This document shows, piece after piece, positions 1 to 30,045 of a stretch of DNA of 32,000 nt. The position numbers and the translations under genes are program-made. This DNA comes from Candidatus Absconditicoccus praedator. Lineage in GTDB: Bacteria; Patescibacteriota; Gracilibacteria; Absconditabacterales; Absconditicoccaceae. The DNA is taken from positions 840,001 through 872,000 of the forward strand of contig NZ_CP054059.1 of assembly GCF_021057185.1 (NCBI RefSeq), given 5' to 3'. Within the stretch, counting starts at the first letter, position 1; every line of letters begins with the position of its first letter. The notes under the pieces are model-generated. The model did no database searches, had not been told where the DNA came from, and saw only the letters and a program-made list of their open reading frames with translations.

Positions 1-1
1 A

Positions 2-4591: not shown

Positions 4592-6010
4592 ATGGAAAAA
4601 ATCAATCTAAAAAATAAAAAAATATTGCCATTTAAATTTAAAAAACTAAAAAGTTGAAAATATTTTTTGAGTAATGATTTTTGACAATGGTTAATATTGT
4701 CTGAAAGAGAATTTAATGATTTTATTGATTGAAAAACTTCTTCTGAATTGGAAGATAGGTTGGTTTCAGCTGGTATGCAAAAATCAAGTAGATTAGATAA
4801 AAATGATGAAATGTATATTAAATATCTTGCTTGAAAATGGTTGAATAGATATCATTATATAATGCAATGACCAAGCTTGCATATAATAGTATTAACGTTA
4901 GCATGTAATCATTCTTGTAAATACTGTCATGCTAGTGCTAAAATCGATGATTCATGAAAATATCATTTATCAAATGAAAAGATAAAAAAGACTATAGATG
5001 TGATATTTAATACAACTGCATGAGCTATAGATATAGAATTTCAGTGATGAGAACCAACTGCTAATTGGGAAGGTTTGAAGTATGCTGTTGAATATATTCA
5101 TGAAAAAAACAAAGTGTATAATCTAAAAGTAAATATAAACTTAGTTTCAAATCTTACAATGATTGATGATGAGAAGATGAACTTTTTGTTAGATAATTGA
5201 GTAGATATTTCTACTAGTATAGATTGACCAAAAGAAGTTCATGATTGGAATAGAGCTTGGATAGGTGATACAAGTAGTTTTGAGACTGTTTCAAAGTGGG
5301 TTAAAAAAATTAATTTTGAGTATGAGAAAAGGTGACTTGAGAAAAAAGTATGAGCTATATGTACAGTTACAAATAAGCTTCTTGATAAACCACAAGAACT
5401 AGTAGATACTTATATAAGTTTATGACTAGATAATATATTTGTAAGACCTTTAAATCCTTATGGTATGGCTACGAAACTATGGGATAGTATAGGATATAAT
5501 TATGAAGAATACTGGAGCTTTTATGAAAAAATGTTAGATTATATAGAAAATAAGCAAGAAAAATGAATAAATATATCTGATACATACTCTCATAAAATAC
5601 ATTGTTGAAACTTAAGATCATCTAAAAGAATAAATTATATGGAAGAGAGGAGTCCTTGTGGTGCTGTGCTTGGTCAGGTAGCCTATAACTGGGATTGAGG
5701 AATATATACATGTGATGAATGAAGAATGCTAGCTCAAACTTGAGATTGTTCATTTAAGATATGAGAAATTGATAATAGATCTGCTGAAGAAATATATAAA
5801 TCTATGGTTTTAGATGTTGTAACAAAGGTTATGTTGTCTGCAAGTATTATAGACTATCTTCCTGGTTATGACACCAATCCAGTAAGTAATTATATATGAA
5901 CTTGCCCTATATACAGTTATACAATTAGTTGAAATATTAATAGTAAGTACAAAAAAGAAGATAGGTTTAAGCTTCAAGAAGATACTCTTGAAAGACTTGT
6001 AGATCAATAA
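4592..6010 (+). CDS. hxsB: HxsB-like radical SAM maturase with C-terminal Cys-rich (SPASM-like) region, 472 aa
   Basis: Read codon by codon from ATG 4592 to TAA 6008-6010 with no TAA/TAG. Motifs CNHSCKYC and QGGEPT (tga tga gaa cca). C-terminal CGAVLGQVAYNWDGGIYTCDEGR...GDC...GTCPIY. Immediately precedes the His-Xaa-Ser repeat gene. Confidence 0.75.
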
Positions 6011-6035
6011 TTTTTAAATATTAAAAATAATTTAA

Positions 6036-6500
6036 ATGATACATAAGAAAAAAAATATTAACTCAATGGTTAGACATGAAGATCAAAAGGTTTCTGGTAA
6101 AAAAACAAATTTACCTTTATATGTTTGAGCTTTGTTTGCTGCAGGAGCGTCTTCTGCATGAGTGTCTTCAGAGGAAAATATTAGTAAATATTTTGAAATA
6201 GAGTCTGCTTATGCTTTTAATTATGGTGTTAGTAATGATAGTAATACCCATCATACAGATACTGATGATAGCTGATTTGATAATGTTGAGGTTGAAATAG
6301 ATCAAAAAACTTTTACTATTGATAAAAATGTGAATGGGCATATTAGTTGATCTATAGATACAAGAAATTATGTAGGCTTATCTCATTGAAGTCATGGTAG
6401 TCATGCTAGTCATTGAAGTCATTGAAGTCACTGAAGTCACTGAAGTCATTGAAGTCACTGAAGTCACTGAAGTCACTGAAGTCACTGAAGTAGGTGGTAA
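6036..6500 (+). CDS. hxsA: HxsA-like His-Xaa-Ser repeat precursor protein, 154 aa
   Basis: ATG 6036 (alternative ATG 6066) to TAA 6498-6500. Hydrophobic N-terminal segment LPLYVGALFAAGASSAGVSS. C-terminus LSHGSHGSHASHGSHGSHGSHGSHGSHGSHGSHGSHGSRW. Confidence 0.85.
6381..6488 (+). repeat. 12 tandem 9-bp units (ag/tc)t-ca(t/c)-(tga/ggt/gct) encoding Ser-His-Gly/Ala
   Basis: Direct reading: tct cat tga, agt cat ggt, agt cat gct, then nine copies of agt ca[tc] tga. Lies inside the hxsA-like CDS. Confidence 0.95.
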
Positions 6501-6527
6501 TTTTTTTAAAATTTAAGTATAATATTA

Positions 6528-7970
6528 ATGTTTACAAATAAAGTGTTTGTTATGTTTTTTTCTTTAATATTATTCTTTTTTCTTGTAATATTTGTTTATT
6601 ATTTCTTAGTTAATGATAGGTCTATACATGAAAGTGATGGAGAATCTGCTTTGAATCAAGATGATGATAGAATTGAATTAGATGAGGAAAATGAAGAGGA
6701 AAATGAAGAGGAAAATGAAGAGGAAGAAGATTATGTAGAAAGTGTTGAGAATGCTCTAGGTTCAGATTATCTTGAAAGAGAAAGAGAACAATTTTGAGAA
6801 GATTTTAATAAAAATAGGCCTTTGACAGATGAAGAAATAGAAGAAACAAAAAAAATACTAGTAGAAGAGTATTGAGTTGATTTAGATGAACACAATAATA
6901 TAGAAGAACTTATAAAAGAAAATTATGAGCAAATTACTGTCGAATGAGGATTTGAAGTTGGTCGTGATTTGTCTAGTTCTGAAAGAGAACTTATAATATC
7001 TATTTTAGAGGATCATGAAGAAGCTTGAGATATACCAAATTTATCAAATCAACAAAAAGAAAATTTTGCTTATTGGATGGAAGTGGAAGATTTTCGTTAT
7101 TTTGTTAATAATCCTATTTATTATTTAAAAAAGTTTTTTAATGAACATGAAGATATAGATCATGATTCTGTTGAGCTAGAATTAAGAAATTTTATAAATG
7201 AACAAATAAATAAATGAACTTTCCCTAAAATGTCTAATAAAGAAATTAATAATTTTGTATCTTATATAGAACCTAATGATAAAGAAAATTTTATGAAAAA
7301 CCCTGAAAAATATATTGATGAATTTATTAGTGAGCAAAAAAGAAGTAGAGATTATGTTATGTCAAGCTGAGAGTATAAATTATGGAAGATGTTTTTAAGT
7401 TGAAATTCAGATGAAGCATTTGAAAAATTAAATAAGACTGCCGAAGAAGAATGATATAGAACTGATATATATGCAAAAATATTTAAAATATACAGTGACT
7501 ATATTTTTGGAACAAATTATTTTGAGTCAGAAGAAAAAGAAAGATTTTTTAGTTGTTTATCAACTTGAACTTATAATGAATCATTTGATGATGAAGTATT
7601 AGATAAGATTTGTGAATGAAAAGATGAAATTATATATTATGATGATGATTGAGAAGTTTTTGTTAACTATTGATTTGTTAATTATACACTTAATTATTTA
7701 AAAGAATTAAATGATTGAAATGAAGACAAATTAACTGAAATTTTGAATACTAATTATAATCATAACAACTTAAAAAGTAGTACATGAGAGAATTATGATC
7801 ATTGAAAAAAAATTTTATATTATTTAGTTTGAAAAGTAATTATTTGATATGATATAGATGTTATAAAAAATGATTATGATGAAATAGAACATTCTTTGGA
7901 AAATAACTGAGATTGTGAACAGATAAGTGATTCTAATTTAAAAAATTATTGTGAAAATATTTTTTATTAA
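6528..7970 (+). CDS. 480-aa membrane-anchored, highly acidic protein of unknown function
   Basis: Start matches track ORF 6528-6797. Read through in-frame TGAs line by line to TAA 7968-7970. N-terminal TM helix FVMFFSLILFFFLVIFVYYFLV, then EENEEENEEENEEEE. C-terminal module is paralogous to CDS 17773-18600. Confidence 0.7.
6684..6719 (+). repeat. 3 perfect tandem copies of 12-bp gaggaaaatgaa (EENE) plus a degenerate fourth unit
   Basis: Direct reading of gaggaaaatgaa x3 followed by gaggaagaagat, inside CDS 6528-7970. Confidence 0.9.
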
Positions 7971-7988
7971 TTCTTTTAATTGATTATT

Positions 7989-9074
7989 ATGCTAAAGAAA
8001 TATTATTGACCCTCGACTGAACGATGAAATTTAAAAGAAATAATTGTATGAGATGTAGAAAACTTTAACTTAAAAAATATTGAAGAAACATTTAAAGTTT
8101 TGTTTTGAGAAAATTTGAGGCATAGTACTTTTGAAAATTTTAAAGATTACCGTGTTGATTCACAAAAAATTAAAGAAAGACAGGAAGATTTAGATAATCT
8201 ATCAGAGCTTTTGAAAAAGCTTTGAGTGAAAGTTTATAGACCTGAAAGATTAGAAAGGGTAAAGGCTTTCAGAGGCCCATATTTTAAAGGTGTGATGTCA
8301 TCTGCTGCCAATCCTAGAGATTTGATTTTTGTTTATAAGGATAAAATTATAGAAAGCACTCCGTGAGGGGTGAACAGATATTTTGAAAAAGATTTATATT
8401 ATAAGATATTACAGGAAAAATTTGAAGAAGGAGCAGTATGGCTTTCTGCTCCAAGTCCTTCTTTTAGAAAAGGTCGTTTTGATTTTAAGGAATGGGATGA
8501 AAAAAGAGATTTTAAAAATTTTGATAGGTTAAAATATGATATAGTTTTTGAGGCAGCACATATGTTAAAATTGTGAGATGATATATTGTTTAATATATCA
8601 AGTTATATGCATGAGTTGTGAGCTGATTGGATGCAAAAAGTTTTGTGAAGCGATACAAGAATACATAAGGTTTATTACTTAGATGACAATCATATTGATT
8701 GAAAATTATCAGCTCTTAGTAGATGAATATTTTTGGCAAACAATGAATTAATGCAAAAAGATATTAAAAATTATTTGCCCAAGAAATTTCATGATTGGAA
8801 AGTAATTTATACCTGAGAAGAATCTGGGAAGTTTAATCATAACTCTTATTTGGATACTGATATGAACTATATTCAGCTTTGTAGTATGAGATGAGCAAAT
8901 ACTAATGTTTTGTCTATAAGTGAAAACAGAGTATTGGTTATGGATTATGCAGAAAAAACTATTAAAAAGCTGGAAGAAAATGGTTTTGATGTAATTCCAG
9001 TTAGAATGAGACATTGTGAATTGTTTGGGGGATGATTACATTGTGCTACTTTGGATTTAAAAAGAGAAGATTAA
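7989..9074 (+). CDS. Amidinotransferase-family enzyme (AGAT / StrB1-like guanidino-group transferase), 361 aa
   Basis: ATG 7989 to TAA 9072-9074, in frame with track ORF 8370-8576. Motifs ANPRDLIFVYKDKIIESTPGGVNRYFE...GAVWLSAPSPSF, DDNHIDG, and C-terminal FGGGLHCATLDLKRED, which matches the catalytic-Cys end of glycine / inosamine-phosphate amidinotransferases. Confidence 0.85.
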
Positions 9075-9079
9075 TATTG

Positions 9080-10012
9080 ATGGATAGACCTTTATTATTT
9101 GAAATAGTTATAACAAATTGATGTAATAAAAGATGTCCTTATTGTGATATTAATTTTGAAAGATGATTTATAAAAAATGAAGTTGTTGATAATTTCATTA
9201 AATCTATAAGAAATTATGATTGAGAGTTAGGGTGAATTCATATCAATTTTTTTTGATGAGAGCCTTTGTTGTGAAAACAACATATTGATCATGTTTTAAA
9301 ATCATTAGAAGAAATAAAAACAAAAATAACATATAGTTTGGTTACAAATTGATGGTTAATAGATGATTTTATTATAGAAAGAATATACAAATATGATATT
9401 AAAGTAGATATTAGTATAGATACTATAAATAATGATGTTTTGAAAGAAAATAAACATATAAAAGAGATTGCAAGCAGAGAAAAGACAAGTGTTAATTATA
9501 TATTTGTTCCTTGACAAATGAGTAATATTGAGGAAACAGCTGCTGTTATGAATGGTATCTGATTTGAAAATATTAATATAATACCAGTATATACTACTAT
9601 GAGTTGGAACAATGAAAATATAAAAATATTAGCAAAAAAAATTAATCAGTTTATCAAAATAAGTAAATCCAAAAATATATGATATTTTAAGTATGATAGA
9701 TGATTTTCCAGAGAAAGACAGTTTATATTAGATGTGTGAGGAGAAATATATCAGGATGTAGATAGTGATATTCGGCTTCAAAAGCAATATAATATTATTC
9801 CTGAATTTCTTAAAAAAAAGGTAGAAAATGAAATGTATCTATGAAATATAAACTATCAGAATTTAAATGAGATTATATGTTGATATGATGAGAGCGTTAT
9901 ATACAATTTGCTAAAAGAATTCGAACTTGAAATTTGAAAACAAAAAGAATATAAGAAAATAGATAAGATAATAGATTATTTTAGTATAATGACCAAAGCT
10001 AAGGATAGATAA
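9080..10012 (+). CDS. Radical SAM protein, 310 aa
   Basis: ATG 9080 to TAA 10010-10012. Motifs CNKRCPYC and FFGGEPLL (tga tga gag cct). Confidence 0.85.
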
Positions 10013-10039
10013 AATAATGTTTATTTTTTAAATTTAATT

Positions 10040-10927
10040 ATGAAAAAAAAAACTTCGGAAGTTACTACAGTTACCAGATGAATAGAAGTTGAACTAACAA
10101 GTATATGTTCTCTTAACTGTGAATTTTGTATTAAAAGTTATAGAACAGAGTTTGGTAACATGGATTTTGATACTTTTTCTAAAGTTGTAGATTTTATAAA
10201 ATTTCTTTGATGTATGGAAGTGGATATATCGTGAGTTGGTGATATTTTTCAAAATGATTCTTTGTATGAGTTTATAGATCATTTATTTGAAAAACTTCCT
10301 AATATAGATGCAGTTATTCCTACTAAATGACAGGATGTAACAATGGAAGATCTTAAAAAAATAAAAAGTTATAATGATAAAGGGTATAATATTACATTGA
10401 TGGCATCTGTAATATACTTAACTAAATGGAAATTTGATAAGTTTGTTGGTAGAAATCAATATGAAAAATTTGTTAAGTTTATAGATATGTTGAGGGATTC
10501 AGGAGTTAACTTTTCTCGAGAATTTGTGATACTAAAGAATAATTTGGATGATTTTGAGAAATTTAAAAAATTAGCTGAAAAAATAGGAAAAGAGTATGGA
10601 ACCTTGTTGGCATATAATTTTTGATGAAATCTTTCAGATGAAATTCATAAAAAATATTTTGATGAAGAAATTTTGAGAGATTATTTTGAATATAGGTCAA
10701 AGGAAGATGTATGTGAGGTGATGAAATATGATCATTTTTTTGTAGATTATAAAGGAGATGTATATATTTGTGCTAATATGGGTATAAATCCAGATGCATT
10801 GCTTTGAAATATAAATGATGTTTATCATGATTTTAATATTTTGTTAGAAAGAAAACAAGAATTTAGAAAAAAATATCATGATATTTGTAATAAATGTTTC
10901 TTTTATAAATATAAACTTCATGATTAA
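10040..10927 (+). CDS. Radical SAM protein with C-terminal Cys motifs, 295 aa
   Basis: ATG 10040 to TAA 10925-10927, in frame with track ORF 10343-10624. CSLNCEFC, then later CEV...GDVYICANMG...CNKC. Confidence 0.8.
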
Positions 10928-10929
10928 AA

Positions 10930-12303
10930 ATGATAACTCATACTTTTTATGCTTTAGTCTTATATCAGGCCCAAATATTATACAATCAAGATCTTTGAAA
11001 TGGTTACTTTCTTTTTGATATAAAAGAAAAAACTATGTGAAAAATAATTGTGGAGTTTAAAAAATGAAATAAAAAGAAAGGTATTTTATTTGTGCATAAA
11101 GATTTTAATACTGACAGAGTAGACTATCAAACAAATAATTGGTTTATTGTGTGAGAAAAGAGTTTGGTAGAATTTGTTTGAAAGAAAATATTAGATAATG
11201 AGCATGAAGATTTTAATTTTTTTAAGACATCTGAAGAATATATATGAAAAATATTTTGAGTGGTGCTTACAATAACAACTCATTGTAATCTGGCTTGCTA
11301 TTATTGTTTCAACGATTATGATTATAATTTAGATCAAAGAAACTTTATAAAACCTTTAACTTTTGAACAAATAAAGTGAATAGTTGATGATTTGTATAAA
11401 AATTGATGTAGAGATATTATAATTTCATGATGAGAACCCTTATTGCATTACGATTTTTTTAATATAATTGACTATTGTTTAAATAAGTGAATATATGTTC
11501 GTGTAAATACTAATTGAGATCTCTTGAATTCTAGAATAGTAGATAAAATAATTCAGTATCCTATAAACTTGATGGTTTCAATACACGAATTTAATGAAAA
11601 AGATTATGCATATACAAATGTTAGATGATTCAGTGAAATTTATAAAAAAGATGTGCCAGAAGAAGTTTTTTATAAAAAGTTTAGAAATAAAATAGAAAAT
11701 TTAAAAATAATATATAAATATCCTAATATTAATTTAGAGTTTATGACTATACTTGATAATAAAAATATTATAAACCTAGAAAAAATATATGATTTTTGCT
11801 TGAATCAATTTTGAATAACACAGTGGCATTTTTTTAGGCTATATAGTACAAAAATTTCTAAATGAATTTCAAAATGAATGATGTCACTTGCTATAAGAAA
11901 ATTGTACAATCTTAATAAAAAATATAATGTTGATTATAAAATAGTTGATGCAGTTCCTTTTTGTGTTACTAGAAAAACAGATTTGGCAGAAAAAGTAATT
12001 GAATGAGAATTAGCAGATAATCATAATGTAAAATTTATTATTACCAATGAATGAGGTTTTCAATTGATGTCATGATTTGATACTGTTGTTTGAAGTGTAT
12101 TTGAAGAATCTATTTCAGAACTTTTGAGTAAAGAATTTACTCAAAAGATGCTAAATAATTGATTTCTTCCAAATGAATGTTTGGATTGTGTGTATAAAAA
12201 TCATTGCAAGGGTGGAAGTAGAATGGAAGCACATATAGCTACCTGAAGCTATGCTGATTTTGATCCTTTATGAAAAATAGCAAATAAAAAATGTCAGATA
12301 TAA
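10930..12303 (+). CDS. Radical SAM protein with about 105-aa N-terminal extension and C-terminal C-x2-C-x5-C-x-G motif, 457 aa
   Basis: ATG 10930 (2 nt after the previous stop) to TAA 12301-12303. Motifs CNLACYYC, SGGEPLL (tga tga gaa ccc) and CLDCVYKNHCKGG. Confidence 0.85.
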
Positions 12304-13127
12304 GAATTGTAAATATATGTAATAATAATTGTATATATTGTCTAGAATCTTCTTATAGAAAAAAAAATAAGTATGAATCTTTAGATTATATTTATTTTCA
12401 AATAAAAGAAATTTCTAAAAACACAGATTTTCTATGAATTTTTGGATGAAATCCTTTGTTGCATCCAAATCTTTTGAATATCTTAAATTATGCAAGAACT
12501 CAAGGCATTAACAATATTTCCATACTTACTAATACTTATAAACTGGATAAAAATTTAATAAGTGATTTAGAAAAAAATTGACTAACTTGAATATGATTTT
12601 ATTTTAATACTTTTGATAAGTATACTCATGAATTAGTTAGTTGATGAGGAATATGATATGAGGAGTTATTAAAAAATATAAATTTAATTTCAAAATCAGA
12701 TCTATCTTATAAAGCAATTATTCATATAAATAAACAAAATATCGAAAATTTATATAAGGATGTTTTTATTTTATACAAAAAATTTGGTGTAGAAAGTTTT
12801 GAATTTATTTGATTTTTTCCATTTGACAAACCTTATGAAAAAAATAATAGAAATTTACTTTTTCTTGATTATAATAACTACAGAAAAAGCATAAATAAAT
12901 TGTTTGATGTTTTAGATAAAATTTGAGTAGAAACACATTTTATAAAATTTCCAAGAAGTTTTTTTGGGAACTATTGAAAATATTATGATTATAAATTTTG
13001 AGTATATGAGCAATTATGAAAAGAAGATATACAAAGGTTAAAAAAAACAGAACCGTATTGTAAAATAGAAAATAGGTGTAAATTTTGTTTTTTAATAGAT
13101 TATTGTAATAATGAATGAATAGCATAA
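12291..13127 (+). CDS. Radical SAM protein, 278 aa
   Basis: ATG 12291 overlaps the upstream stop by 13 nt; TAA 13125-13127. Motifs CNNNCIYC, FGGNPLL and C-terminal CKIENRCKFCFLIDYC. Confidence 0.8.
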
Positions 13128-13993
13128 CATTATTTTTAACTAATAAATGTAATTTGCATTGTGATTATTGTATAGTTAATATATGAAATAAATCGATTAA
13201 CGAAAACAATTTTTCTTGTCTATATAATTTTTTAAGTAAAAACATAAAAAAAATAGATACTATAAAATTTCTTTGATGAGAGCCATTGATTGAATATAAT
13301 AAAATTAAAAAAATAGCTAATATTTCTAAAAATATTAATTTTGAATTGGCTACTAACTGATATTTTATTAACAAGGAAATTGCTGATTTTCTGAAAGAAA
13401 AAAACTTCAAAGTTAACTTGTCTTTAGATTTTCAAAATAAAAACTATACTGAGAAATCCGAATATTTTAAAGGTTATAAAGATTTTTATTTTTCTTTGAC
13501 TTTGACACCTGAAAATCTTGATAATGCTTATGAATTTGTCAAAGGTTTTTATAAAAAATGATTTCGTAATTACAATATTTTACCTGTATTTTATAATAAT
13601 CTTTGGACTGATTCAGATATTGAAAAATTAAAATTATTGTATAAAAAACTTTTATCTTTGAAAATAGGATATAAAGAACTTTTTTTTGAGTGAGTTAATG
13701 ATGGGGACGAAAAGTTGTTGAATTATGATAAGATTTTTATAAATTACGATTGAGAAATTTTTTTATCAGATGTGGTGGAAAACTATATAGGAATATGATG
13801 AGATCTAAAAGATTCTGCTAAAATATGAAATATCAAAGATGTTGAAAATATAGATAGTTTGAATAAAATTATTAAAGAAAAAGAATACTTAATAGATAGT
13901 TATTTAAAAAGCTTTGAAGAAAAAGAAAAAAAATTATTTGATGTTGTGGATTATTTTTCAACTTATTATAATAAAATAAGTAAGTATTATTAG
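13115..13993 (+). CDS. Radical SAM protein, 292 aa
   Basis: ATG 13115 overlaps the upstream stop by 13 nt; TAG 13991-13993. Motifs CNLHCDYC and LGGEPLI (tga tga gag cca). Confidence 0.8.
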
Positions 13994-14021
13994 ACTATGT
14001 TTTATTTTTGAAATTTGAATA

Positions 14022-19588: not shown

Positions 19589-19714
19589 ATTTTTTATTTG
19601 TTTATATAAACCATGTCACTATTATAAAAAAACAATAATATTTTTCAATACATAAGTGATTAATTCTATTGAAAAATTCTATAATATAATTAGTATGCTA
19701 TGCTAAATAATAAG

Positions 19715-19757
19715 TGGACCCTTTTTCAAGACCAGTTTATGCATTTATTTAAGGTAG
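19715..19757. repeat. IS terminal inverted repeat (orfB-distal end)
   Basis: tggacccTTTTTCAAgaccagt...atttaaggt, matching the reverse complement of 21045-21077. Confidence 0.7.
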
Positions 19758-19773
19758 TGACATTTTATTTGTA

Positions 19774-20736: not shown

Positions 20737-20953
20737 TTAGCTTTTCATTTTCTTTATCCTTATTGTTTTTTTCTCTCTTGTCGTCAAATATACTTTCAGC
20801 ATTTTCTATAAATTGTTGTTTCCATCTGTTTTGTTGATTAGGATGGACTCAATATTCGCTGGTTATTTGAGATTGAGTTTTATGACCATGTATAAGTTCA
20901 GTAATGACTTGTAGTTTAAATTTGGAACTGTACTTATTTCTCTTATTTCCCAT
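20639..20953 (-). CDS. IS3-family transposase OrfA (helix-turn-helix / leucine-zipper part), 104 aa
   Basis: ATG at 20953, TAA at 20639-20641. MGNKRNKYSSKFKLQVITELIHGHKTQSQITSEYGVHPNQQNRWKQQF...LYSKLGKVTMEKEWLEKK. Confidence 0.8.
20674..20682 (-). other. A9 tract (T9 on the plus strand) at the orfA/orfB overlap; candidate slippage site
   Basis: ctg gaa aaa aaa att in the orfA frame. orfB lies in the +1 frame here and the -1 frame closes after 5 codons. Confidence 0.6.
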
Positions 20954-21044
20954 AATATTGATTTGTTATAAATTAAATCTCTCTAGACAATATTTAATTT
21001 ATAATATTTTCTTATGCCTAATTTTCAACAATTTTGTTAACTAT

Positions 21045-21077
21045 CCACCTTAAATACTGGTCCAGAGATTGGGTCCA
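21045..21077. repeat. IS terminal inverted repeat (orfA-proximal end)
   Basis: Reverse complement reads tggacccaatctctggaccagtatttaaggtgg. Confidence 0.7.
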
Positions 21078-21079
21078 TT

Positions 21080-21427
21080 ATACCTAGTCAACTTTTTTAT
21101 TCAAAATATATTAATTTTACAAGTCATCTTAAAAGATATCTAAAATATTTTAATAAAGATAGAATAAAAGTTATAATTTACGAAGATTTTTTATATGATA
21201 ATCAAAAAATTATCAATGAAATCACTGATTTTTTAAAAATTGAAAAATTTACTATAGTGTATAAAAAAGTTAATACTTCTAATTCTAACAAATCAATTAG
21301 TGAAAATGATAAATTATATTTAATGAAAAAACTTAAGTGAGAGGTTATAAAAATAAATAAACTTTTAAATGATTATAAATTAATTAATAAAGATTTAATT
21401 TCTTATTGGGCTTATGATAAGATATAA
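21080..21427 (+). pseudogene. 5'-truncated sulfotransferase remnant (C-terminal ~115 aa only)
   Basis: Frame reads IPSQLFYSKYINFTSHLKRYLKYFNKDRIKVIIYEDFLYDNQKIINEITDFLKI... to TAA 21425-21427. It starts directly at the IS end, with no N-terminal PAPS-binding loop anywhere nearby. Confidence 0.55.
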
Positions 21428-21521
21428 ATATAATTGTTTTTTTATTTTACTAAAATATTCTTGAATTAAACTATAAAAAACTTAGTATATTAGTATAATT
21501 TTAATTTAAAATATTTTGCTT

Positions 21522-22766
21522 ATGACTATAATTTCTTCTGAAAATAGAGTATGGGTAAGGATAAGTAATTCTTGTATAAGTTCTTGTATATTTTGTTTGG
21601 ATTCAGACAATTTAAAACAAAAAAGTTTTGTAGAAGATAAAATAATAAAGTATGAGTTAGAGAAGTCATATAAAAAATGATATAAAAATAAGGCTATAAT
21701 CTCTGGGTGAGAAGCTAGTATTAATCCTAAATTTATTGATTATATAAAATATGCAAGGGATGTTTGATATACAAAGATACAGACAATAACAAATTGATAT
21801 AAGTTTTGAAGTGAAAGTTTTACAAAAAAATGTATAGATAACTGACTTGATGAAATAACTTTTTCACTTCACTGACATACTCCTGAACTTCATGATAGCC
21901 TTACCTGATTAAAATGAGCTTTTAAAAATATTATAAAAGCAATTTATTATATAAGGAATAATCATCCAGAAACTATAATAAATTGTGATATTATTATTTG
22001 TAAACCTAATGTAGGTTATGCATATAAAATAGTGCAGTTATTGAAAAGGTTGCAAGTTTTTGAGTATGATATACTACAGATTGTCCCTCAGGCTTTAGCA
22101 TGGGAAAATAGAGGTGATTTGTTGTTTGATGATATATATAATCACAAAGAAAGTTTACACAAACTATGGAAAGAGTCTGAAGACAAAAGAGTACATATGC
22201 GAGCTAATAGGGTGTTTCCATGACTTTTAGAGTGATTTGAGGATATGATTCAATCTCCAGAAAAAATGTCAGATGAAGTTCTTAATGAGGCTAAGAAGGA
22301 GTGGGAAAGAGTCTTTAAAAAAAGAAAATTGCCTGAGTGTAGAGATGAAATTAGGTGTGCAAATTGTTATATGAATTGGTTTTGTGATAACCTAAATGAG
22401 TTCTATTTTTCTTCAAATAAAAAAAATAAAAAAGAAAAACTTTTCTCACATAGAAGTATTGATAAAATAAATGAAATTTATCCAGCTGATATTGTTAATT
22501 TTAAATGAGAAGTATTTGGTAGGGATGTTTTAAATCTTCCATACTGTTTATCTTGAAAAAATAATTCATTTACAAATTTTAATGATTATTTGCTAGAACA
22601 TAAAATACAAGCAAACATAGTTAATTTTACTAATTGGTTTATGGATGAATGATTTAGAATAAAATCAACTTGATGTAAAGAATGTAAACTATATAATTCT
22701 TGTAAGTGAATTCATATAAATTTTATAAAAAAATACTGATTTAAAATACTTAATCCAATTAAATAA
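21522..22766 (+). CDS. Radical SAM protein with C-terminal C-x2-C-x5-C-x-G motif, 414 aa
   Basis: ATG 21522 to TAA 22764-22766, in frame with track ORFs 22032-22223 and 22245-22508. Motifs CISSCIFC, SGGEAS, CRDEIRCANC and CKECKLYNSCKG. Confidence 0.8.
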
Positions 22767-22769
22767 TAA

Positions 22770-23822
22770 ATGGTTCAATATATAAATGAGATAATAAGAA
22801 CAAATTATAAGTGTAATCGAAAATGTAAGTTTTGTAATGTACTAAAAACAAATAATTATTGAGTTGTAGATGTTTCTGATTGAGAAGTTATAAATAAAAT
22901 TTTAGAAATTGCTAGAAAATATAATGAAGATCAATTAAAGTATGTAACAATTTCCTTTTCATGATGAGAACCTTTAATGAATAAAAATTTAGAAAAATAC
23001 ATAAAACTAGCAAAAAAAATATGAATATGAACTGTAGAAATACAAACTAATTGAATATTGTTAATCAATAATAAGTTTAAAATTAATAAACTATATGATG
23101 CTTGATTGGATGAAATTTTTATAGCACAACATAGCCATAAAAATGATGTAAATTATAGTTTATGATGCTTTTTGGACACAAAAAAACTAGAGGAGCGAGT
23201 TTTCTATGTTAAAAAAAATAATATTTATACACATGAGAAAAATCAACATTGAGTTTCAATTTATTTAAATATTGTTATTACAAAAATTAACTTGCCCTAT
23301 TTAAAAGAATTTTTATTATATCTAAAAAAAATATGATTTATTGATTTAATAGAACCTAGGCATCATTTTGATTGAAACTGAAATTTGGAAAAGGTGACAA
23401 GGAAAATATCTTTATGATTTGTTCAGCCTCATTGATATGCTTGGGAATATTGAAAAGAGGTATTGCTCGATTTTAATGATGAACAAAAAAGATATATAGA
23501 GGAACTAATAAATTACTGTGAAGAAAATGATTTGTTGCCGGATATTCATTTTGTGGGTCCTCCTCTTTGCTTGATGTATTATCCCAAGTATAATTTAGAA
23601 TATAACAGGTTGAAGAAAATAGAGGAAGATAAAAAAAAGTGACTTCAAAACGATGAAAATATCGACACATTCAGAGTTTTACAGAAAGAAAAAAGTAAAC
23701 TTAAAGAGTGTGAAAGATGCAAATATAACAAATTTTGCTTATGAATATACAAGGCACGATTAGAGTTTTTTGGAGAAGAATATGCTAGGAAAAAAATTAA
23801 TGAATTTATAAAAAAACAGTAA
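22770..23822 (+). CDS. Radical SAM protein, 350 aa; paralog of CDS 18638-19588
   Basis: ATG 22770 to TAA 23820-23822. Motifs CNRKCKFC, SGGEPLM, QHSH, GYAWEYGKEVLLDF and CERCKYNKFCLG. Confidence 0.8.
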
Positions 23823-23826
23823 TATA

Positions 23827-24789
23827 ATGAATATTTGATATTTACAAATAACTAGAATATGTAATCATAAATGTATATTTTGTTCTAACCCTTCAAATGG
23901 TAATTTTTTATCTTTATCTGAAATAGAAGATTCAGTTAAAATACTAAAAAAAGAATGATTTAATTCTATTATAATAACATGATGAGAGCCTACTATTCAT
24001 CCAAATTTTATTGATGTTGTAAATATTATTAAAAATAATTGAATTGAAGCTAGAGTAATAACTAATGGGTACCTATTTTCAAAAACTGAAAATGTAAAAC
24101 AAATTAAAGATGCATGAATAAATATTGTTCATTTATCGGTTTATACATATAAAAAAGAGTTAAACGATAAAATTAGAGAGTATCCTTGAGCATTTGATCA
24201 AATGGTTAAAGCTATTATAAATTTAAAAAAGTATTGAATTACTACTCAAATAACTTCTGTAATTACAAAATATAATCAAGATCATTTGGATAAAACAGTA
24301 AAATTTATTAAAAAACTAAATCCAAATATATCACATTTTGTTCGAAATGTTATGGATCCTGAAATGATGCCAAAAAAATGAAAAGATAAAAAAGATGAAA
24401 TATTACCTGACCTGGAAAAGGCTGGTAATAGCTTGGTTCAAATATTTAAATATTTAGAAAGTATATGAAATACTTTTAGGGTTGAAAAAATGCCACTTTG
24501 TTTCATACCTTGATATGAGTGGGCTAATACTGAATGTAGAAAGATAGTAAAAGATGAAAAAAGATATGTTCGTTTTTTGGACTTTAGAGAAAAAATTAAT
24601 GAGTCTTGAAGAGATTTTCAACATTGATTGCTTGATGATTGTAAAAATTGTATATTAAATGAAATATGTTGATGAGTATATGAAAATAAAAAACGATATA
24701 ATTATATAAATGTGAAACCCAAATGAATTGATTATAAAGGCAATTTAGAAAAGATAATTTTAAAGATAAAATGAAAAACAAAAGGATAG
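23827..24789 (+). CDS. Radical SAM protein, 320 aa
   Basis: ATG 23827 to TAG 24787-24789. Motifs CNHKCIFCSNPS, TGGEPT and CKNCILNEICGG. Confidence 0.8.
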
Positions 24790-25679
24790 AGATACCGTTG
24801 TGATGGAAGTGTAATGAAAGGTGTTTTTTTTGTAGTGAAACAGAGTTGATAGAATATCATAAGTGAAAGTCATTAAGTTTTGAGTATTTTTATAAGTTGC
24901 TAATTTCTTATTATAAAGAAGGTTATAATCATTTAACAATAGTATGATGAGAACCAACTATAGAGAAAAACTTTATGAAAGCAATAAAGTTAGCAAAAAA
25001 ATTATGAATGTGAGTGCAGATATCAACTAACTGATTAAGGTTTGAGGATGAGGTTTTTAGTAAAGAGGCAATGAAGTATATAGACCGAATAACATTATCA
25101 GTTCATACAATAGAAGATGATTTATTTAAAAAGATTACACAAACGAATATAGATTGATGGAAAAGTAGGCTTGAAAAGATATTAAAAAATATTTGAAAAT
25201 ATAAAGATAATCATGAAATAAGAATAAATTATGTGTTAACAAATTACAATATAGAGCATTTAAAAATATTAGACACTATAAATTATATAGAGAAAAATTT
25301 GCCTAATTACACATCTTTTGTACTAACTTATCCGGATATTACAGTTATAGAATCTGGAGAATTAACAAAAAAAATTAAAGTTAAAAAAGATGATTTATTT
25401 TCTTCTTTAGAAATACTTTATGAAAAACTTTCATCTGACCAAACTAGGAAATTGGTATTGGCAGATATGCCATTTTGTTTTGTTCCAGAGGAATTACATG
25501 GGAATTTACAAGATAATTTTATGGCATTAGATAGTATATCAAAAATATTTATAAAGGATGAAAAAAAGAAGCATGATAGGAATAAAGTAGACCCTAGGTG
25601 AAGATTTAAAGCAAATCAATGTAATAATTGTAAGTATTCTCATACATGTTTTTGATTTCCTAACATATTTGAGTTTTAA
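24771..25679 (+). CDS. Radical SAM protein, 302 aa
   Basis: ATG 24771 overlaps the upstream gene by 19 nt; TAA 25677-25679. In frame with track ORF 25233-25601. Motifs CNERCFFC, VGGEPT and CNNCKYSHTCFG. Confidence 0.8.
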
Positions 25680-26929
25680 AGCATTTTTTTGTAGTTTAGT
25701 CAAAATCTGTTTTTAGGGTCTTTGAAAATTAAATAAGATTCGAAAAGACTTTTAGAAATGAATTTTGCATTGTTTGGGTGAGTTTCAATTTTTTCTGGGT
25801 GTCAATTATTATAAATTATTTTAAAATTGTAAATATTATTTTTTTTAAACAGTTTTATTGCATTATTTATATTTTTATAAATTACTAATATTTTATGAAA
25901 TCATAATGGTGTGGTTTCCGATGTTGGTGTTTTAAATTTTTCTGCCAGCTCTTTCCTTCTTATAAAGTTGTGTTTTTGTACAGTTTCTATGGAGCAAAAG
26001 TGTATATAATACGTAGGTTTTTCATTTTTTATTATGTCATGTATTAGCTTTAAAGAAGTTAGTTTACTTCATAATATAGGATATTCTTTTTTAGAAATTC
26101 AATAATACTTTTCTACTAGTTCACCTTTTTGTAAGTCTATTTTGTAATTTAATTTATTATAAATAGTGTTGTGATGTCAGTTATATGTCATTTCATTTAG
26201 ATTAAATCAATTTATTGCATTTTGATCCGATAGTTCTTTCATAATTTTATACATATATTCATAAGTATCAGGTTGTACTGGCATTTCTATAAGTACTGAG
26301 GGGATATATTTTTTTGAAAGTTTGTATAGTTCTGTTTTTGGTTTTTCATAGGGTTTTATGCTGTATCTAAGTTCTGATACTCATTTGTCTTTTAATTTTT
26401 TTAATATTTCTTCATCAATAAAATCTCAAGTAGTATAGATTCTTTTTATAACTCAGCTGTATTTTTCATTTACATAATCTAGAATTTTGAATACTGTTTT
26501 TTTGTGTAAAAATGGTTCTCATCATGTGATTGCTAGGGTTTTGTTGTTTTTGTTTGTGCTGAATGTGTCGTCTATGATTCTTAGACTTTTGTTGTAATCT
26601 TTTTGATTTGTGGCTGCGTTAAAACTATTTTCTGGGCATAAAGGATTTTTTTCATAACAAAAAAAACAGCTTCTATTACATAAATAGCTAATTACAATTG
26701 TGCATCATTGTCATTTTATGCATTCAGAACATCATATAGATCTTCACCCATAAAATAATCAGTCTCAAATTCCTGTGAAAGAAACTCATTCTAATGATCT
26801 TAAATTTTGTTTTATAAAATCTAAATTTTCCTTAGATTCTTTTTTTAATTCAATATCTCAAAATTCTTTAATTCTGTTTTGTATGAATTTTTCTCTAATT
26901 TTTTCTATATTTTTTAGTTCTTTGTTCAT
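25676..26929 (-). CDS. Radical SAM protein with an extra upstream CxxC, 417 aa
   Basis: ATG at 26929 (in-frame stop 2 codons upstream), TAA at 25676-25678, overlapping the convergent stop within TTAA. Motifs CSECIKG, CNRSCFFCY and TGGEPFL. Confidence 0.75.
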
Positions 26930-26971
26930 AAAAAATTAGTACAGCTTAAAATTATAATAATGATATTTAAT

Positions 26972-27706
26972 TTATTTTTTATTTCAAGTTTTGTTTTTTA
27001 TAAATTTATTTAGGTAAAAAAGATTTTTTTTAATTATTTTATTTTCTTGTTTTGATGTGTTGAGTAAATTATATAAGCATTTGTTGAAGTTCATTTCATT
27101 TACTTGTTTTTTGTGTCAGATTTTAATTATTATGTTTCCTTTATAATTTATTAATTTTTCTCATTGTTGAAATTCAATTTCATAGTATATATAATCTATG
27201 TTTTTATTTAGAAGGTAAAAGTTTATGTTTGTCAATATTGTCGAAAAATTTTTATATGTTAGAAAGTATCATAATGAATGTTCTAGTATGTCTCTATCAA
27301 ATGCTGATTTTATTTTAATAGGTTTCCTATTTAAGATTAGATTTAAATATATTTCATCATTGAAATAAAATATGTTTTCTTTATCAATTATTTGATTTAA
27401 TAAATCTAATTCATAAGATACGGGTTTTTCTATTATTATTTTTGAATTTTTAATATTTGTACTAAGTATAAATTTTAATACTTTGGTTTGTTCTGCAGTG
27501 GGACTTATGGCAATTATAATAATATCAAATTTTTCAAAAAATTTTATGTTTTTTATCTTATCAAATTTGAAAATATTAGTTCAATTGAATTTGTTTTTTT
27601 TATCTACTCATGATCTATTGCATAAGCTAATCCTGTATCATAGCGACTTGAAATATTGGTAATATTTGAGTCCTTGTTTTCATGTTCACAATATTAAAAC
27701 ATTCAT
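26972..27706 (-). CDS. Rossmann-fold NAD(P)-binding oxidoreductase-like protein, 244 aa
   Basis: ATG at 27706, TAA at 26972-26974. N-terminus MNVLILGTGKQGLKYY has a GxGxxG motif with two Gly as TGA. Confidence 0.55.
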
Positions 27707-27730
27707 TTTATTTTTTGTAATTTACTTAAA

Positions 27731-28984
27731 TTAGCTTTTGATTCACTCTTTTCTATTTTTTGCAATTTGTAATAATTCTTTTGGGCTCAAAAATATTAAT
27801 CAGTAAAATCATATATTTTTTTCTTCTCAATTGTAATATAAGTACCTATCATCTTCAATTATAATATTATTTTTGATTAAGAAATCTATTTCTTCTTTAA
27901 ACATGTCTTTAATGTTTTTATTGAACTTTTTTTTGAAATCTATTTTGTCTATTTTATCTTGAAAGGATTTTAAAGTATATGATAGAATCTCATAATTATT
28001 ATCTAATTTTTCTATAGAAAAAATAAATTTTCAATTTTTAAAAAAACTTGTTTCATAACTTCATAGATTTCGAACTTTAGAAATGCTTTTGTATCAAACA
28101 CCAAAAATAGATTTTTTTTCATTAGAATACAATCAAAAGCTTTTTTTACTGTTTCAAGATTTTTTATGTTTAAAAATATATCACAACACATTGTTCAATT
28201 TTGTTGTGTTATATTTGTTTTTTATTTTACTGCCTTTAATTGTTTTTGTAAATAAATTTTCCAAATTGTCATAAAATTTATCTCAATATTTTATATATAT
28301 ATTATTTGTCTTGTTTTGTTCTTTCATTACAGTGTAATATGTGATGCTATCAGGCTCACACTCTTTTAATATATTTAAATTACTTATAAAATCACTTATG
28401 TCATCATCTCATAATCATAGAACTAAATCTGTATTTATGAATTCTATTCATACTTTTTTTCAGTAACTTATAAATTCTTTAATTGTTTCTTTATCTACGT
28501 ATCTTCTATTTTCTTTTTCTAGTGTGTTCTTATTGAATGATTGGACTCAAAAGCTTATTCTATCAAATCATAGATCTTTTACTTTTTTTATTTTAGATAA
28601 TGATGTAGAGCAGGGATTTAATTCTATTGTTTTTTGATAGTCTTTATTGAATTTAAAGTTTTTAAAAATATATCAAAATATGTCCTCCATCTCACTTTCA
28701 TTTAATGTGCTAGGAGTTCCTCATCAAACATAAATTCAGCTAAATTCAACTTTCTTAAATAAATCTATAAAATTGTATAAAAAATTTTTAACATCTAAGA
28801 TATAATCTTTTTTTTGTTTTTGATTTGTTAGCAAAAGTTTGTCATACATACAATATTTACAAATTTTTTCACAAAATGGAATATGTAAGTAAAAACTAAT
28901 GGGATGGTTGTTGTCTATAATCTTTAAGTGTTTTTTTCGTAGATTTATTATTTCTGTTTTGCTTACTTCTTTTTTTTTGTTCAT
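27731..28984 (-). CDS. HemN/HemW-family (coproporphyrinogen-III-oxidase-like) radical SAM protein, 417 aa
   Basis: Extends track ORF 28736-28984 through TGA to TAA 27731-27733. Motifs SFYLHIPFCEKICKYC, YVGGGTPS, ISFGVQSF and DLVLGLGDDD. An alternative in-frame ATG lies at 29065. Confidence 0.85.
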
Positions 28985-29151
28985 ACTAAACCTATCAAAT
29001 AAAAAATCATGTCATGGATTTATCAATTTTTTTATTATTCTTCTTTTTTTTTCAATAGAATTCATGTAGAGTAAATAAAATCTAAAAAGTTCTTGAAAAA
29101 ATATTATTTTTTTATAAACTTAATTCAAGTTTATTTTGATATAAATATTGA

Positions 29152-30045
29152 ATGAAAAGAGCTGATATAAAGGTTTGATTTTCTTGTAATAATTTTTGTG
29201 AATTTTGTGTGCAGTGAGATAAAAGGTTTTTGTTTAAGCCACGTTCATTAGAAAAAATAAAAGAAATCACAAAGCATGAATATGATAATTGATGTAGGGA
29301 AGCAGTTTTTACTTGATGAGAGCCAACTGTTCATCCGAAACTTGTGGAGGCGGTTTCATACGCAAGTAGTATCTGATATAAAGAAATACAAATACAATCA
29401 AATTGAACAAATTTTGATGACATTAATTATTGTAAAAGTCTTATTAATGCTTGAGTGACACAGTTTTGACCTTCTATTCATTGAGCTAATCCATCTACTC
29501 ATGATGATTTGGTTAAAACTAAATGAGCCTGGAAAAGGGTTGTAAAATGAGTACATAATCTAAAAAGATTAAGACAAGCTATAATATTTAACATTGTTGT
29601 TACTAAGAAAAATTATAGAGAATTACCTAAGCTTTCAAAAATACTGTGTGAACTGTGAGTTTCTCAACTTCAATTTGCTTTTGTTCATATATTATGATCT
29701 GCTGATAAAAATAAAGTAAAGATTGTTCCTAAAAAGACTGATGTGATGCCATATATAAAAAAATGAATAGATATATGAAATCTCTATAAAATTCCAGTTT
29801 TTACAGAAGCTATTCCATATTGTCTGATGCAGTGATATGAGTATGCAATAGCAGAGAATATAATGCCAGAAACAACAGTTATTGATGCTGAACATACTAC
29901 AGAAAGTTATAAGGATTATAGAGTTGCTGAATGAAAAGTAAAGGTTGAAAAATGTAAGACTTGTAAATACTTTAAGTATTGTGAGTGACCCTGGAAGGAA
30001 TATCCTGAAATATATTGATGGGATGAGTTTGAGCCAATTAAATAA
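29152..30045 (+). CDS. Radical SAM protein with C-terminal C-x2-C-x5-C-x-G motif, 297 aa
   Basis: ATG 29152 to TAA 30043-30045. Motifs CNNFCEFC, TGGEPT and CKTCKYFKYCEGPW. Confidence 0.8.

Follow-up and report, generated by a model that had tools for sequence, protein, structure and literature searches.

A 30 kb island of fourteen radical SAM genes in Candidatus Absconditicoccus praedator, probably an expanded Hxs maturation system with a linked Group VI nitrogenase-like reductase

We have analyzed a stretch of 32,000 nucleotides of the genome of Candidatus Absconditicoccus praedator (positions 840,001 to 872,000 of contig NZ_CP054059.1, assembly GCF_021057185.1; hereafter the window), in which a first-pass annotation made from the letters alone had pointed out fourteen radical S-adenosylmethionine (radical SAM) genes around an Hxs-type core. 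That observation holds, and the interpretation given to it at first pass is borne out in part. These genes are one unit and not a chance aggregation. On balance they probably constitute a single conserved multi-enzyme system, in which an expanded Hxs maturation machinery is combined with a Group VI nitrogenase-like reductase and the repeat protein HxsA is the shared substrate. The HXS system was defined in silico by Haft & Basu (2011; NCBIfam TIGR03976-TIGR03979), while Méheust et al. (2020) described Group VI nitrogenase paralogues in groundwater Elusimicrobia, flanked by as many as 13 radical SAM genes, found homologues in the genomes of two Gracilibacteria and 14 Myxococcales, and proposed a role in tetrapyrrole reduction. 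The first-pass annotation had been unable to match the region to any described pathway; this has to be corrected, as the locus type (Group VI genes with a radical SAM suite) is already published and the Hxs core was characterized in 2026. We found no literature joining Hxs and Group VI nitrogenase paralogues, nor any on radical SAM enzymes in Absconditabacteria, Gracilibacteria or Vampirococcus, and recognition of the locus as an expanded Hxs system, and with it of a candidate substrate for the Group VI enzymes, seems to be novel and can be tested directly.

Calling of open reading frames (ORFs) in the standard code gave nothing usable: with table 11 the window contains no ORF of at least 150 aa, whereas tables 4 and 25 give 35, and about 91% of the window is then coding. 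All 33 glycine codons in the ten GGEP, the NifH Walker A and the HxsA-repeat motifs are TGA, which identifies the code as 25 (UGA = Gly); proteins were translated accordingly, with 31 genes called in the window, and correspond to NCBI accessions UFX83288 to UFX83311. Radical SAM genes make up 14 of 27 consecutive genes, with 14.9 kb coding in a span of 25.5 kb, a density far beyond chance. The true extent is larger than the island of about 26 kb described by the first-pass annotation, running from 3836 to about 33876 in window coordinates, i.e., about 30 kb or 2.7% of the complete 1,129,696 bp genome. The region past the window end was taken from Logan contig L010 (locus numbers with the prefix L are used below where loci have to be told apart), which is identical to the window across 10,947 nt; there, two Oxidored_nitro subunits of 560 and 426 aa come after the NifH-like gene, and housekeeping genes (HD, AAA, LigA) lie beyond them. 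Neither tRNA genes nor Rfam families were found within the window. The guanine plus cytosine (GC) content of the island (3836-32000) is 23.7%, against 30.9% (1-3800) and 28.6% (L010 12824-18992) in the flanks, so that the island is 5-7 GC points more AT-rich than the DNA on both sides.

The core at the start of the island comprises the following genes.

3836 to 4030, plus strand: small ORF of 64 aa (code-25 translation), overlapping the start of hxsD by 14 nt.
4017 to 4562, plus strand: HxsD, TIGR03976 at 54 bits against a cut-off of 50; orthologues in L006-L012 are 34-60% identical.
4592 to 6010, plus strand: HxsB, a radical SAM/SPASM maturase (CNHSCKYC), TIGR03978 over its full length at 413.8 against 370; also named HxsB by NCBI (UFX83288).
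6036 to 6500, plus strand: HxsA, precursor/effector, NF038313 (HxsA4) at 56.7 against 55.

The small ORF matches no family and does not match an HxsD profile built here, and it aligns with ORFs of 56-67 aa located just before or after HxsD in L006, L007, L008, and L009. HxsA begins with a basic leader and a hydrophobic segment, followed by an NGHIS motif, and its C-terminal (SHG)12 ends in RW; this amounts to 12 consecutive His-Xaa-Ser (HxS) units, with Xaa being Gly (TGA) in 11. It is the sole HxS-repeat precursor ORF in the window, so that the single hxsA-like precursor noticed at first pass stands, and no peptidoglycan-binding domain was detected with Pfam. In 53 loci an HxsA-type ORF with 5-42 His-Xaa-Ser units, in which Xaa is mostly Gly, lies just downstream of HxsB and usually ends in HGQW, W or Y. 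The leader (lPxIKKdIKxFLtSEEGKIxKK) and the hydrophobic segment which follows it are kept across phyla in about 50 loci (e.g., L045 12079-12642 and L015 11489-11788). The HxsA of the window is a diverged version of this cross-phylum type, and the NGH[YI]S motif preceding the repeats is present in code-25 lineages only. As a mere curiosity, Ser-His-Gly is also the chromophore triplet of blue fluorescent protein (the Y66H variant of green fluorescent protein), and such a triplet can be converted to a conjugated imidazolinone.

All 14 radical SAM genes bear the CxxxCxxC motifs listed for them at first pass, and with 39.3-110.2 bits all 14 proteins exceed the PF04055 gathering score of Pfam, which is 29.5. 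The claim that most carry a GGEP-type motif was also borne out, since the motif is exact in ten and replaced by the variants GGNP, GGEA, GGTP, and GVGD in the other four. One more such motif, the fifteenth (CPCNCDIC), occurs in the U32-like gene at 14222 and was discarded, as it lies outside any radical SAM domain. Besides HxsB, the genes are as follows, with scores in bits given against the respective family cut-offs.

9080 to 10012, plus strand: g9032p (CNKRCPYC), PapB-like in its N-terminal half, without C-terminal Cys cluster; PF04055 68, PapB 80 against 340.
10040 to 10927, plus strand: g10040p (CSLNCEFC), radical SAM/SPASM; PF04055 49, SPASM PF13186 21.5 (exactly the cut-off), spiro-SPASM 52 against 250.
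10930 to 12303, plus strand: g10930p (CNLACYYC), N-terminally extended and with CxxCx5C at the C-terminus; PF04055 73, NirJ2/AhbD 76/74 against 500.
12291 to 13127, plus strand: g12291p (CNNNCIYC), HxsC-like, with C-terminal CKFCFLIDYC; PF04055 73.5, HxsC 54 against 268.
13115 to 13993, plus strand: g13115p (CNLHCDYC), PapB-like, without downstream Cys; PF04055 45, PapB 74 against 340.
18638 to 19588, minus strand: g19588m (CNLKCNFC), HxsC-like, with a CKKCKFNDYC motif; PF04055 82.
21522 to 22766, plus strand: g21522p (CISSCIFC), HxsC-like, with two C-terminal CxxCx5C; PF04055 53, HxsC4 105 against 500.
22770 to 23822, plus strand: g22770p (CNRKCKFC), HxsC-like; PF04055 55; orthologues of about 30% identity in L006 and L009.
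23827 to 24789, plus strand: g23827p (CNHKCIFC), HxsC-like and the nearest of the 14 to canonical HxsC; PF04055 110, HxsC TIGR03977 120.5 against 267.9.
24771 to 25679, plus strand: g24771p (CNERCFFC), HxsC-like; PF04055 71, MoaA/viperin about 72, below cut-off; orthologues in L006, L009, and L021.
25676 to 26929, minus strand: g26929m (CNRSCFFC), N-terminally extended and more divergent than any other of the 14; PF04055 39, best NCBIfam match 40.
27731 to 29065, minus strand: g29065m (CEKICKYC), HemN/HemW/HemZ-like, class C-type; HemZ 135 against 321, HemW 130 against 205, HemN 129 against 325.
29152 to 30045, plus strand: g29152p (CNNFCEFC), HxsC4-like and twitch-type, the most conserved member; HxsC4 140.7 against 500.

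For g9032p there is an in-frame upstream ATG at 9032, and the start at 9080 avoids overlap with the preceding gene. In the NCBIfam scan HxsB was the only one of the 14 to reach a curated cut-off; the other 13 reached none (including those for MoaA, QueE, NrdG, PFL-AE, HemN/HemW/HemZ, PqqE, viperin, HxsC, and HxsC4). The best housekeeping scores were 83.6 against 325 for MoaA, 38.8 against 260 for QueE, 129.6 against 205.4 for HemW, 47 against 131 for NrdG, and 46.5 against 232 for PflA, and no NCBIfam match to BioB, LipA or RlmN was listed for any of the 14 proteins. Housekeeping identities, which the first-pass annotation had named as a finding that would count against it, were rejected on the basis of these cut-offs. 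A defence island was likewise rejected as unsupported, since the matches in PADLOC 2023 were mostly to generic viperin (pVip) models and for the most part limited to the radical SAM core (38-82 bits). PADLOC yielded no Hxs-specific match, HxsD matching nothing and HxsB only pVip. The match of g9032p to PDLC02904 is longer and takes in almost the entire profile (positions 7-237 of 262, 52 bits), while no NCBIfam viperin score went beyond 72 bits, the cut-off being 180.

All-against-all comparison identified seven full-length HxsC/HxsC4-related paralogues (g12291, g19588m, g21522, g22770, g23827, g24771, and g29152), a PapB-like pair (g9032 and g13115), the SPASM-type g10040 and g10930, the HemN-like g29065m, and the very divergent g26929m. 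Full-length similarity to g21522p, g29152p, and g23827p was found for g12291p. A C-terminal CxxCx5C with an upstream Cys, which indicates an auxiliary cluster, is present in eight proteins, the seven HxsC-like ones and g10930p, and in two copies in g21522p; it is absent in g9032p, g13115p, g26929m, and g29065m. Several of these subfamilies recur elsewhere: orthologues of g21522p (29-40% identical over about 410 aa) in L004, L041, L017, L021, L066, and L153, the g13115p subfamily in L006, L009, L021, L041, and L079, that of g29065m in L006, L009 (three copies), L041, L034, L021, and L153, and that of g23827p in 18 GTDB HxsB loci and nine loci of nitrogenase-like (Nfl) genes, while g9032p has an orthologue of 32% identity in L007. 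The most widespread is g29152p, with 796 relatives across the candidate phyla radiation (CPR), the top 120 of which are 55-67% identical. Its best-hit full-length homologues occur in 43 loci and strict orthologues (at least 40% identity) in 9 of the 44 GTDB HxsB loci of at least 15 kb. An orthologue directly after HxsB (L002; an Altimarinota genome) marks g29152p as an HxsC-type partner, and it is the partner that usually accompanies this HxsB clade. The AlphaFold2 model of g29152p (predicted local distance difference test, pLDDT, 89.5) is closest in a fold search to the twitch-domain enzymes BlsE and SkfB; the model thus confirms a twitch-type radical SAM fold, but does not tell peptide and small-molecule substrates apart.

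The array is not confined to one genome. The closest relative, GCA_028696815.1 (Gracilibacteria), carries on one 31 kb contig HxsD, the small ORF, HxsB, and HxsA plus 12 further radical SAM genes, among which are orthologues of g21522p (40%), g23827p (45%), and g29152p (67%), and it also has a homologue of g1127p, the protein encoded next to the island in the window. A second Gracilibacteria genome has at least eight radical SAM genes after the same core, and a metagenome contig with an HxsB of 54% identity has U32, oxidoreductase and g1127p homologues in common with the window. Peribacteria and standard-code Parcubacteria have nine radical SAM genes within 10 kb of HxsB and Elusimicrobia have eight, including orthologues of g29152p, g21522p, g23827p, g13115p, and the HemN-like gene. 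A density of this kind, which the first-pass annotation had found striking for a lineage with reduced genomes, is hence not peculiar to that lineage. When the species genomes of GTDB were scanned with an HxsB profile, 80 loci from many phyla were obtained. This set is biased against genomes with code 25, in which tblastn matches are interrupted by in-frame TGA; it contains few Gracilibacteria or Peribacteria loci and was used as a cross-phylum panel. At least five radical SAM genes were present in 14 of its 44 HxsB loci of at least 15 kb. In standard-code Parcubacteria, Elusimicrobia, Schekmanbacteria, and Buchananbacteria the g13115-, g29152-, HemN-, g21522-, g23827-, and g24771-like subfamilies adjoin HxsD-HxsB-HxsA. 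Overall, subfamilies of the window are seen again beside HxsD-HxsB-(HGS)n HxsA in Gracilibacteria, Peribacteria, Parcubacteria, Elusimicrobia, and Myxococcota. Sharing of subfamilies across phyla shows that the paralogues are old, distinct and co-travelling, and not the outcome of recent local duplication. Related genomes therefore cluster these subfamilies after the core, and the scattered, unlinked homologues which the first-pass annotation had envisaged as a counter-finding were not what was seen.

It should be noted that three HxsB loci with (HxS)n precursors (L049, L063, and L079, the last with six radical SAM genes) lie on contigs binned as Methanosarcinales and Woesearchaeota, which are either archaeal instances or mis-binned contigs.

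The window itself is less orderly than its relatives, the gene strand changing several times within the island and one element splitting it without being part of the system.

19774 to 20523, minus strand: IS3-family transposase (rve 92 bits, HTH_21 64 bits).

In this insertion sequence (IS) region (19589-21521) the independent assembly of the organism in Logan is interrupted precisely at window position 21054, which suggests a multi-copy IS, and no convincing pair of inverted repeats was seen in the AT-rich window DNA. On either side of the region are g19588m and g22770p, the closest paralogue pair (41% identical full length), in opposite orientations. One could thus picture a mixed island, where unrelated radical SAM systems (the Hxs core, housekeeping genes, and other defence modules or modules for ribosomally synthesized and post-translationally modified peptides) accumulated in a variable region with the aid of the IS. 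The transposase and the strand switches would suit such an origin, as would the low GC content relative to the flanks, the several window-specific genes, and the presence of the g29152 family beside nrdDG elsewhere; moreover L008 (HxsB 58% identical) has YcaO and methyltransferase genes (10929-13650) after HxsA in place of the radical SAM run. We nevertheless regard it as very improbable, given that the same five to seven radical SAM subfamilies stand beside HxsDBA across phyla with different genetic codes, that the related arrays are contiguous, on a single strand and free of the IS, that no protein reaches a housekeeping cut-off, and that the PADLOC matches are only to the generic viperin core. 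Since TGA is used for glycine throughout the island, it is not a recent import from a standard-code organism.

The island ends with three genes for a nitrogenase-like complex.

30067 to 30894, plus strand: NflH (g30067p), nitrogenase Fe-protein homologue; Fer4_NifH 267 bits, best PDB match NifH with 204 bits.
30897 to 32000, plus strand: NflD, component-1-like and highly divergent, cut by the window end (full length about 560 aa); Oxidored_nitro 39 bits.
After NflD, ending at window-equivalent 33876, plus strand: NflK, 426 aa, from L010.

In NCBIfam NflH scores 270 bits for nifH and 260 bits for CfbC, both below cut-off; it retains the Walker A motif GKGGIGKS and the cluster cysteines in CAGRG and VCGGF (equivalents of Cys97 and Cys132). 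The best matches of NflD and NflK are to nifE (29 bits) and BchB (54 bits, NflK) against cut-offs of 490-650. Conserved cysteines are Cys167 and Cys249 in NflD (with Cys551 in 80%) and Cys41 in NflK (49 and 67 sequences), and three to four conserved Cys across the two subunits fit one simple inter-subunit Fe-S cluster. From its motifs, divergence, radical SAM context and taxa the trio would belong to Group VI.

Physical linkage of this trio with the Hxs core is recurrent. NflK/NflH homologues are found in Elusimicrobia (L026), Myxococcales (L046), and Deltaproteobacteria (L035 and L039) with E values of 1e-53 to 1e-74, and NflH homologues adjoin HxsB/HxsA in L046, L039, L144, L154, and L128. 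Counting the window, where it shares the same island, the trio occurs with HxsB and/or HxsA (within ±10 kb) in nine loci. NflHDK is placed between HxsB and HxsA in L046 (Myxococcales, with a (SHG)15 HxsA) and in L144; it directly abuts HxsD, HxsB, HxsA, and HxsC-like genes in L128, L144, and L154, is together with HxsA in L039, and is about 2 kb from HxsB in L026 and at most 10 kb from it in L035 and L096. For a reciprocal test a metagenome scan was done with an NflK profile, which gave 78 loci, 22 of them of at least 15 kb; at least one HxsC-like radical SAM gene was present in 15 of these 22, and three or more in nine. In L092, L147, L148, and L166 two or three copies of NflH/D/K stand side by side, interleaved with HxsC-like radical SAM genes, and such loci match the multi-copy Elusimicrobia lineage of Méheust et al.

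According to the proposal of Méheust et al. (2020), NflHDK and the radical SAM enzymes would belong to a tetrapyrrole-type cofactor pathway and modify a scavenged tetrapyrrole, with hxsD-hxsB-hxsA being merely frequent neighbours. The enzymes which these authors place beside Group VI, CfbCD and the dark-operative protochlorophyllide and chlorophyllide oxidoreductases (DPOR/COR), do reduce tetrapyrrole C=C bonds. In the window there are HemN/HemZ/HemW-like and NirJ/AhbD-like radical SAM genes, the best family match of NflK is BchB, and many Nfl loci have no HxsB within 10 kb; furthermore the prey, Halorhodospira, makes bacteriochlorophyll. However, the HemN-like and NirJ-like scores are far below cut-off (129-135 against 205-325 and 76 against 500, respectively), class C HemN-like enzymes also act on substrates other than tetrapyrroles, and the 30 kb island holds no gene for tetrapyrrole biosynthesis or transport. 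A tetrapyrrole pathway would also have to explain why the trio separates HxsB from HxsA in two unrelated loci and adjoins the core elsewhere, and why the radical SAM genes flanking Nfl are of the same HxsC-like subfamilies that accompany HxsA. This makes a tetrapyrrole role quite unlikely in our judgement.

HxsA is probably the shared substrate of the radical SAM suite, and of NflHDK, and for such a system a sequence of steps can be proposed. HxsD, perhaps with the small ORF, would present the leader-bearing HxsA to HxsB and the HxsC-like enzymes, and these would place radical carbon insertions or cross-links on the His/Ser of the repeats; this chemistry is proposed because the E. coli system shows a change of +8 Da (+C/-4H) on SHRSS. 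The extra paralogues might carry out further or position-specific steps, with the HemN-like enzyme providing SAM-derived carbon. ATP-driven NflHDK, with its putative single simple Fe-S cluster, would then reduce the unsaturated His-derived product, and matured HxsA would finally reach the cell envelope by export. We infer from the gene content what the substrate is, in which order the reactions run, and that reduction and export take place. One possibility for the role would be envelope-level phage exclusion as in E. coli, another a redox-active or metal-binding surface polymer. In its most specific form, i.e., that the Nfl complex reduces unsaturated His-derived heterocycles on an HxsA (Ser-His-Gly)n cross-linked and carbon-decorated by roughly a dozen radical SAM enzymes in succession, to give a new redox-active surface polymer or many copies of a new peptide-derived cofactor, the proposal is tentative and may well turn out otherwise.

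The remaining genes of the window bear on the kind of product that is made.

1127 to 3649, plus strand: g1127p, 840 aa, secreted-type with an N-terminal hydrophobic signal; no Pfam match.
6528 to 7970, plus strand: g6528p, membrane-anchored by an N-terminal transmembrane segment, with poly-acidic NEEE-type repeats; no Pfam match.
7989 to 9074, plus strand: amidinotransferase; full-length matches in a PDB sequence search to HsvA (7e-39), SxtG (8e-35), and AGAT (3e-30).
14222 to 14980, plus strand: U32-family protein with a C-terminal Cys cluster; PF01136 25.9 against 22.4, L007 orthologue 52.6% identical.
15046 to 15654, plus strand: class I SAM-dependent methyltransferase; Methyltransf_31/25/11 at 39-49 bits.
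15900 to 16877, plus strand: protein with a C-terminal phosphoenolpyruvate (PEP)-utilising mobile (swivel His) domain; PF00391 31.2 against 23.1.
16903 to 17640, plus strand: g16903p, PEP/pyruvate-binding (ATP-grasp-like) partner; weak match to the PEP synthase N-terminus, with a matching NCBI name.
17773 to 18600, plus strand: g17773p, paralogue of the g6528p C-terminal domain (35% identity over 250 aa); no family match.
26972 to 27706, minus strand: Rossmann-type oxidoreductase-like protein; GFO_IDH_MocA 22.3 bits, below the cut-off of 24; L007 homologue 31%.

The tailoring genes named by the first-pass annotation were thus recovered as amidinotransferase, methyltransferase, U32-like gene, PEP-utiliser pair, and NifH-like gene, with only the oxidoreductase falling short of its cut-off. 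The partner g16903p is a sequence orphan, as among 5.8 billion clusters only its own re-translated copy was matched. Homologues of g1127p flank the island in L007 (379-3306; 33.5% over 716 aa) and L004 (10974-13649; 26% over 545 aa), so that a gene of this type is present in three genomes, upstream of the island in two and downstream in one, and its product may be a functional partner or target of the system. Upstream in L008 (1118-3050) we observed a DpnII/MboI-type restriction enzyme and a RhuM-like gene.

These tailoring genes raise the question of a peptide-derived small cofactor, for which HxsA would serve as a multi-core precursor whose His-Gly-Ser units are each cross-linked, tailored, reduced and excised, in the manner of pyrroloquinoline quinone (PQQ) or mycofactocin. 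Enzymes such as the amidinotransferase, the methyltransferase, the U32 protein, and the phosphotransferase pair typically tailor small molecules, a repeat number of 5 to 42 with a fixed unit is as expected for a multi-copy core, and a radical SAM/SPASM enzyme with a small partner resembles PqqE/PqqD and MftC/MftB; such a product would also bring the cofactor proposed by Méheust et al. into line with the linkage to Hxs. On the other hand, the loci share no conserved protease or peptidase (the U32 gene is present only in the window and L007), and the conserved hydrophobic export/anchor segment of HxsA suits a surface protein. In E. coli mature HxsA works as a protein, with five repeats that are all needed (PMC13128918). 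We therefore hold a small cofactor to be unlikely. Between the two products considered at first pass, a heavily modified peptide or a cofactor-like small molecule, the evidence favours a peptide or protein substrate as the more probable.

Several observations have to be set against an expanded Hxs system with HxsA as common substrate. On the HxsB side Nfl genes were found in just four of the 80 GTDB loci (L046, L039, L026, and L035), and on the Nfl side HxsB was within ±10 kb in four of the 78 NflK-centred loci and in three of the 22 of at least 15 kb, seven long Nfl loci having neither HxsB nor HxsC-like genes; the Nfl-Hxs link may hence be facultative. Here a view of ±10 kb under-detects the Nfl-HxsB link, since 26 kb separate HxsB and NflK in the window. 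The cut-offs for HxsC (267.9, TIGR03977) and HxsC4 (500, NF038332) were reached by none of the paralogues, the best scores being 120.5 (g23827p) and 140.7 (g29152p), so that the HxsC-like genes are relatives of HxsC, yet outside the curated families. The structural neighbours of g29152p mix small-molecule enzymes (BlsE, DesII, viperin) with peptide maturases (SkfB, SuiB), and in two Gracilibacteria an orthologue (64-66% identical) lies in the nrdD-nrdG interval (L001 2537-3430 and L005 10001-10894) with no Hxs genes in view, a hint that this highly conserved CPR radical SAM family may have another role, either additional or different. No homologues of the amidinotransferase, the methyltransferase, the PEP-utiliser pair, g10040p, and g12291p were found in the related loci examined, and the amidinotransferase by its family would point more to small-molecule chemistry.

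If HxsA is indeed what the Nfl complex acts on, the complex would be the first example of a nitrogenase homologue that takes part in peptide or protein maturation, and a group of Nfl enzymes which has been an orphan since 2020 would have its substrate. Through the HxsD-HxsB-HxsA linkage the orphan Group VI enzymes gain a genetically encoded candidate substrate, and two published puzzles, the Hxs system and the Group VI nitrogenase paralogues, are joined into one testable system. The Hxs system in turn is widened by a larger and older variant with up to 14 radical SAM enzymes in CPR bacteria, Elusimicrobia, and Myxococcota. That a predator with a genome of 1.13 Mb spends about 2.7% of it on this system argues that the product matters for its lifestyle. 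Candidatus Absconditicoccus praedator is available in co-culture.

The system closest to the core is the four-gene HXS of E. coli, which is antiphage and blocks phage DNA entry (Li et al., Nat Commun 2026; PMC13128918). In that study HxsB, HxsC, and HxsD were all required for modification and processing of HxsA, the modification was the +8 Da change on the SHRSS motif mentioned above, and 99.7% of HXS systems were in Pseudomonadota, with more than 99.8% being of the four-protein type. Likewise the HxsD, HxsB, and HxS-repeat HxsA of the window pass their family cut-offs, HxsC-related radical SAM genes are present, and HxsA has an N-terminal export-type segment; a leader- or partner-guided radical modification of the His/Ser of the repeats is probably common to both. 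The window differs in its gene order (small ORF, HxsD, HxsB, HxsA), with HxsC-like genes 6-23 kb downstream and none at the HxsC cut-off, in its thirteen further radical SAM genes, tailoring enzymes and NflHDK, and in its uniform (SHG)12 repeat as opposed to the five basic HxS units of E. coli.

As for Group VI, a July 2026 review lists its function as unknown, with only a "proposed tetrapyrrole" role from gene context. The window shares with it an NflH that keeps Walker A and the Cys97/Cys132 equivalents, extremely divergent NflD/NflK with few conserved Cys, up to 13-14 adjoining radical SAM genes, and an occurrence in Elusimicrobia, Gracilibacteria, and Myxococcales. The Group VI papers make no mention of HxsA, HxsB, HxsD or a peptide substrate, while here the radical SAM suite is recognized as HxsC-like paralogues which are physically linked to the Hxs core, and the window instance comes from a cultivated Absconditabacterium.

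With PQQ (PqqA/D/E) and mycofactocin (MftA/B/C) the window has in common a ribosomal precursor, a radical SAM enzyme with auxiliary cluster, and a small accessory protein beside the maturase. Family scores are far apart, however (PqqE 71 against 381 bits, MftC no more than 55 against 265), the precursor is built as a long tandem repeat, and the number of radical SAM genes is an order of magnitude higher. DPOR (BchLNB) and CfbCD likewise combine a NifH-type ATPase with a D/K-type catalytic component carrying a single [4Fe-4S] catalytic cluster, and the three to four conserved Cys shared by NflD and NflK are consistent with one simple cluster of this kind; the window nevertheless scores only 54 against 490 bits for BchB and 16 against 268 for CfbD, and the partners of its nitrogenase-like complex are peptide-type radical SAM genes and not tetrapyrrole genes.

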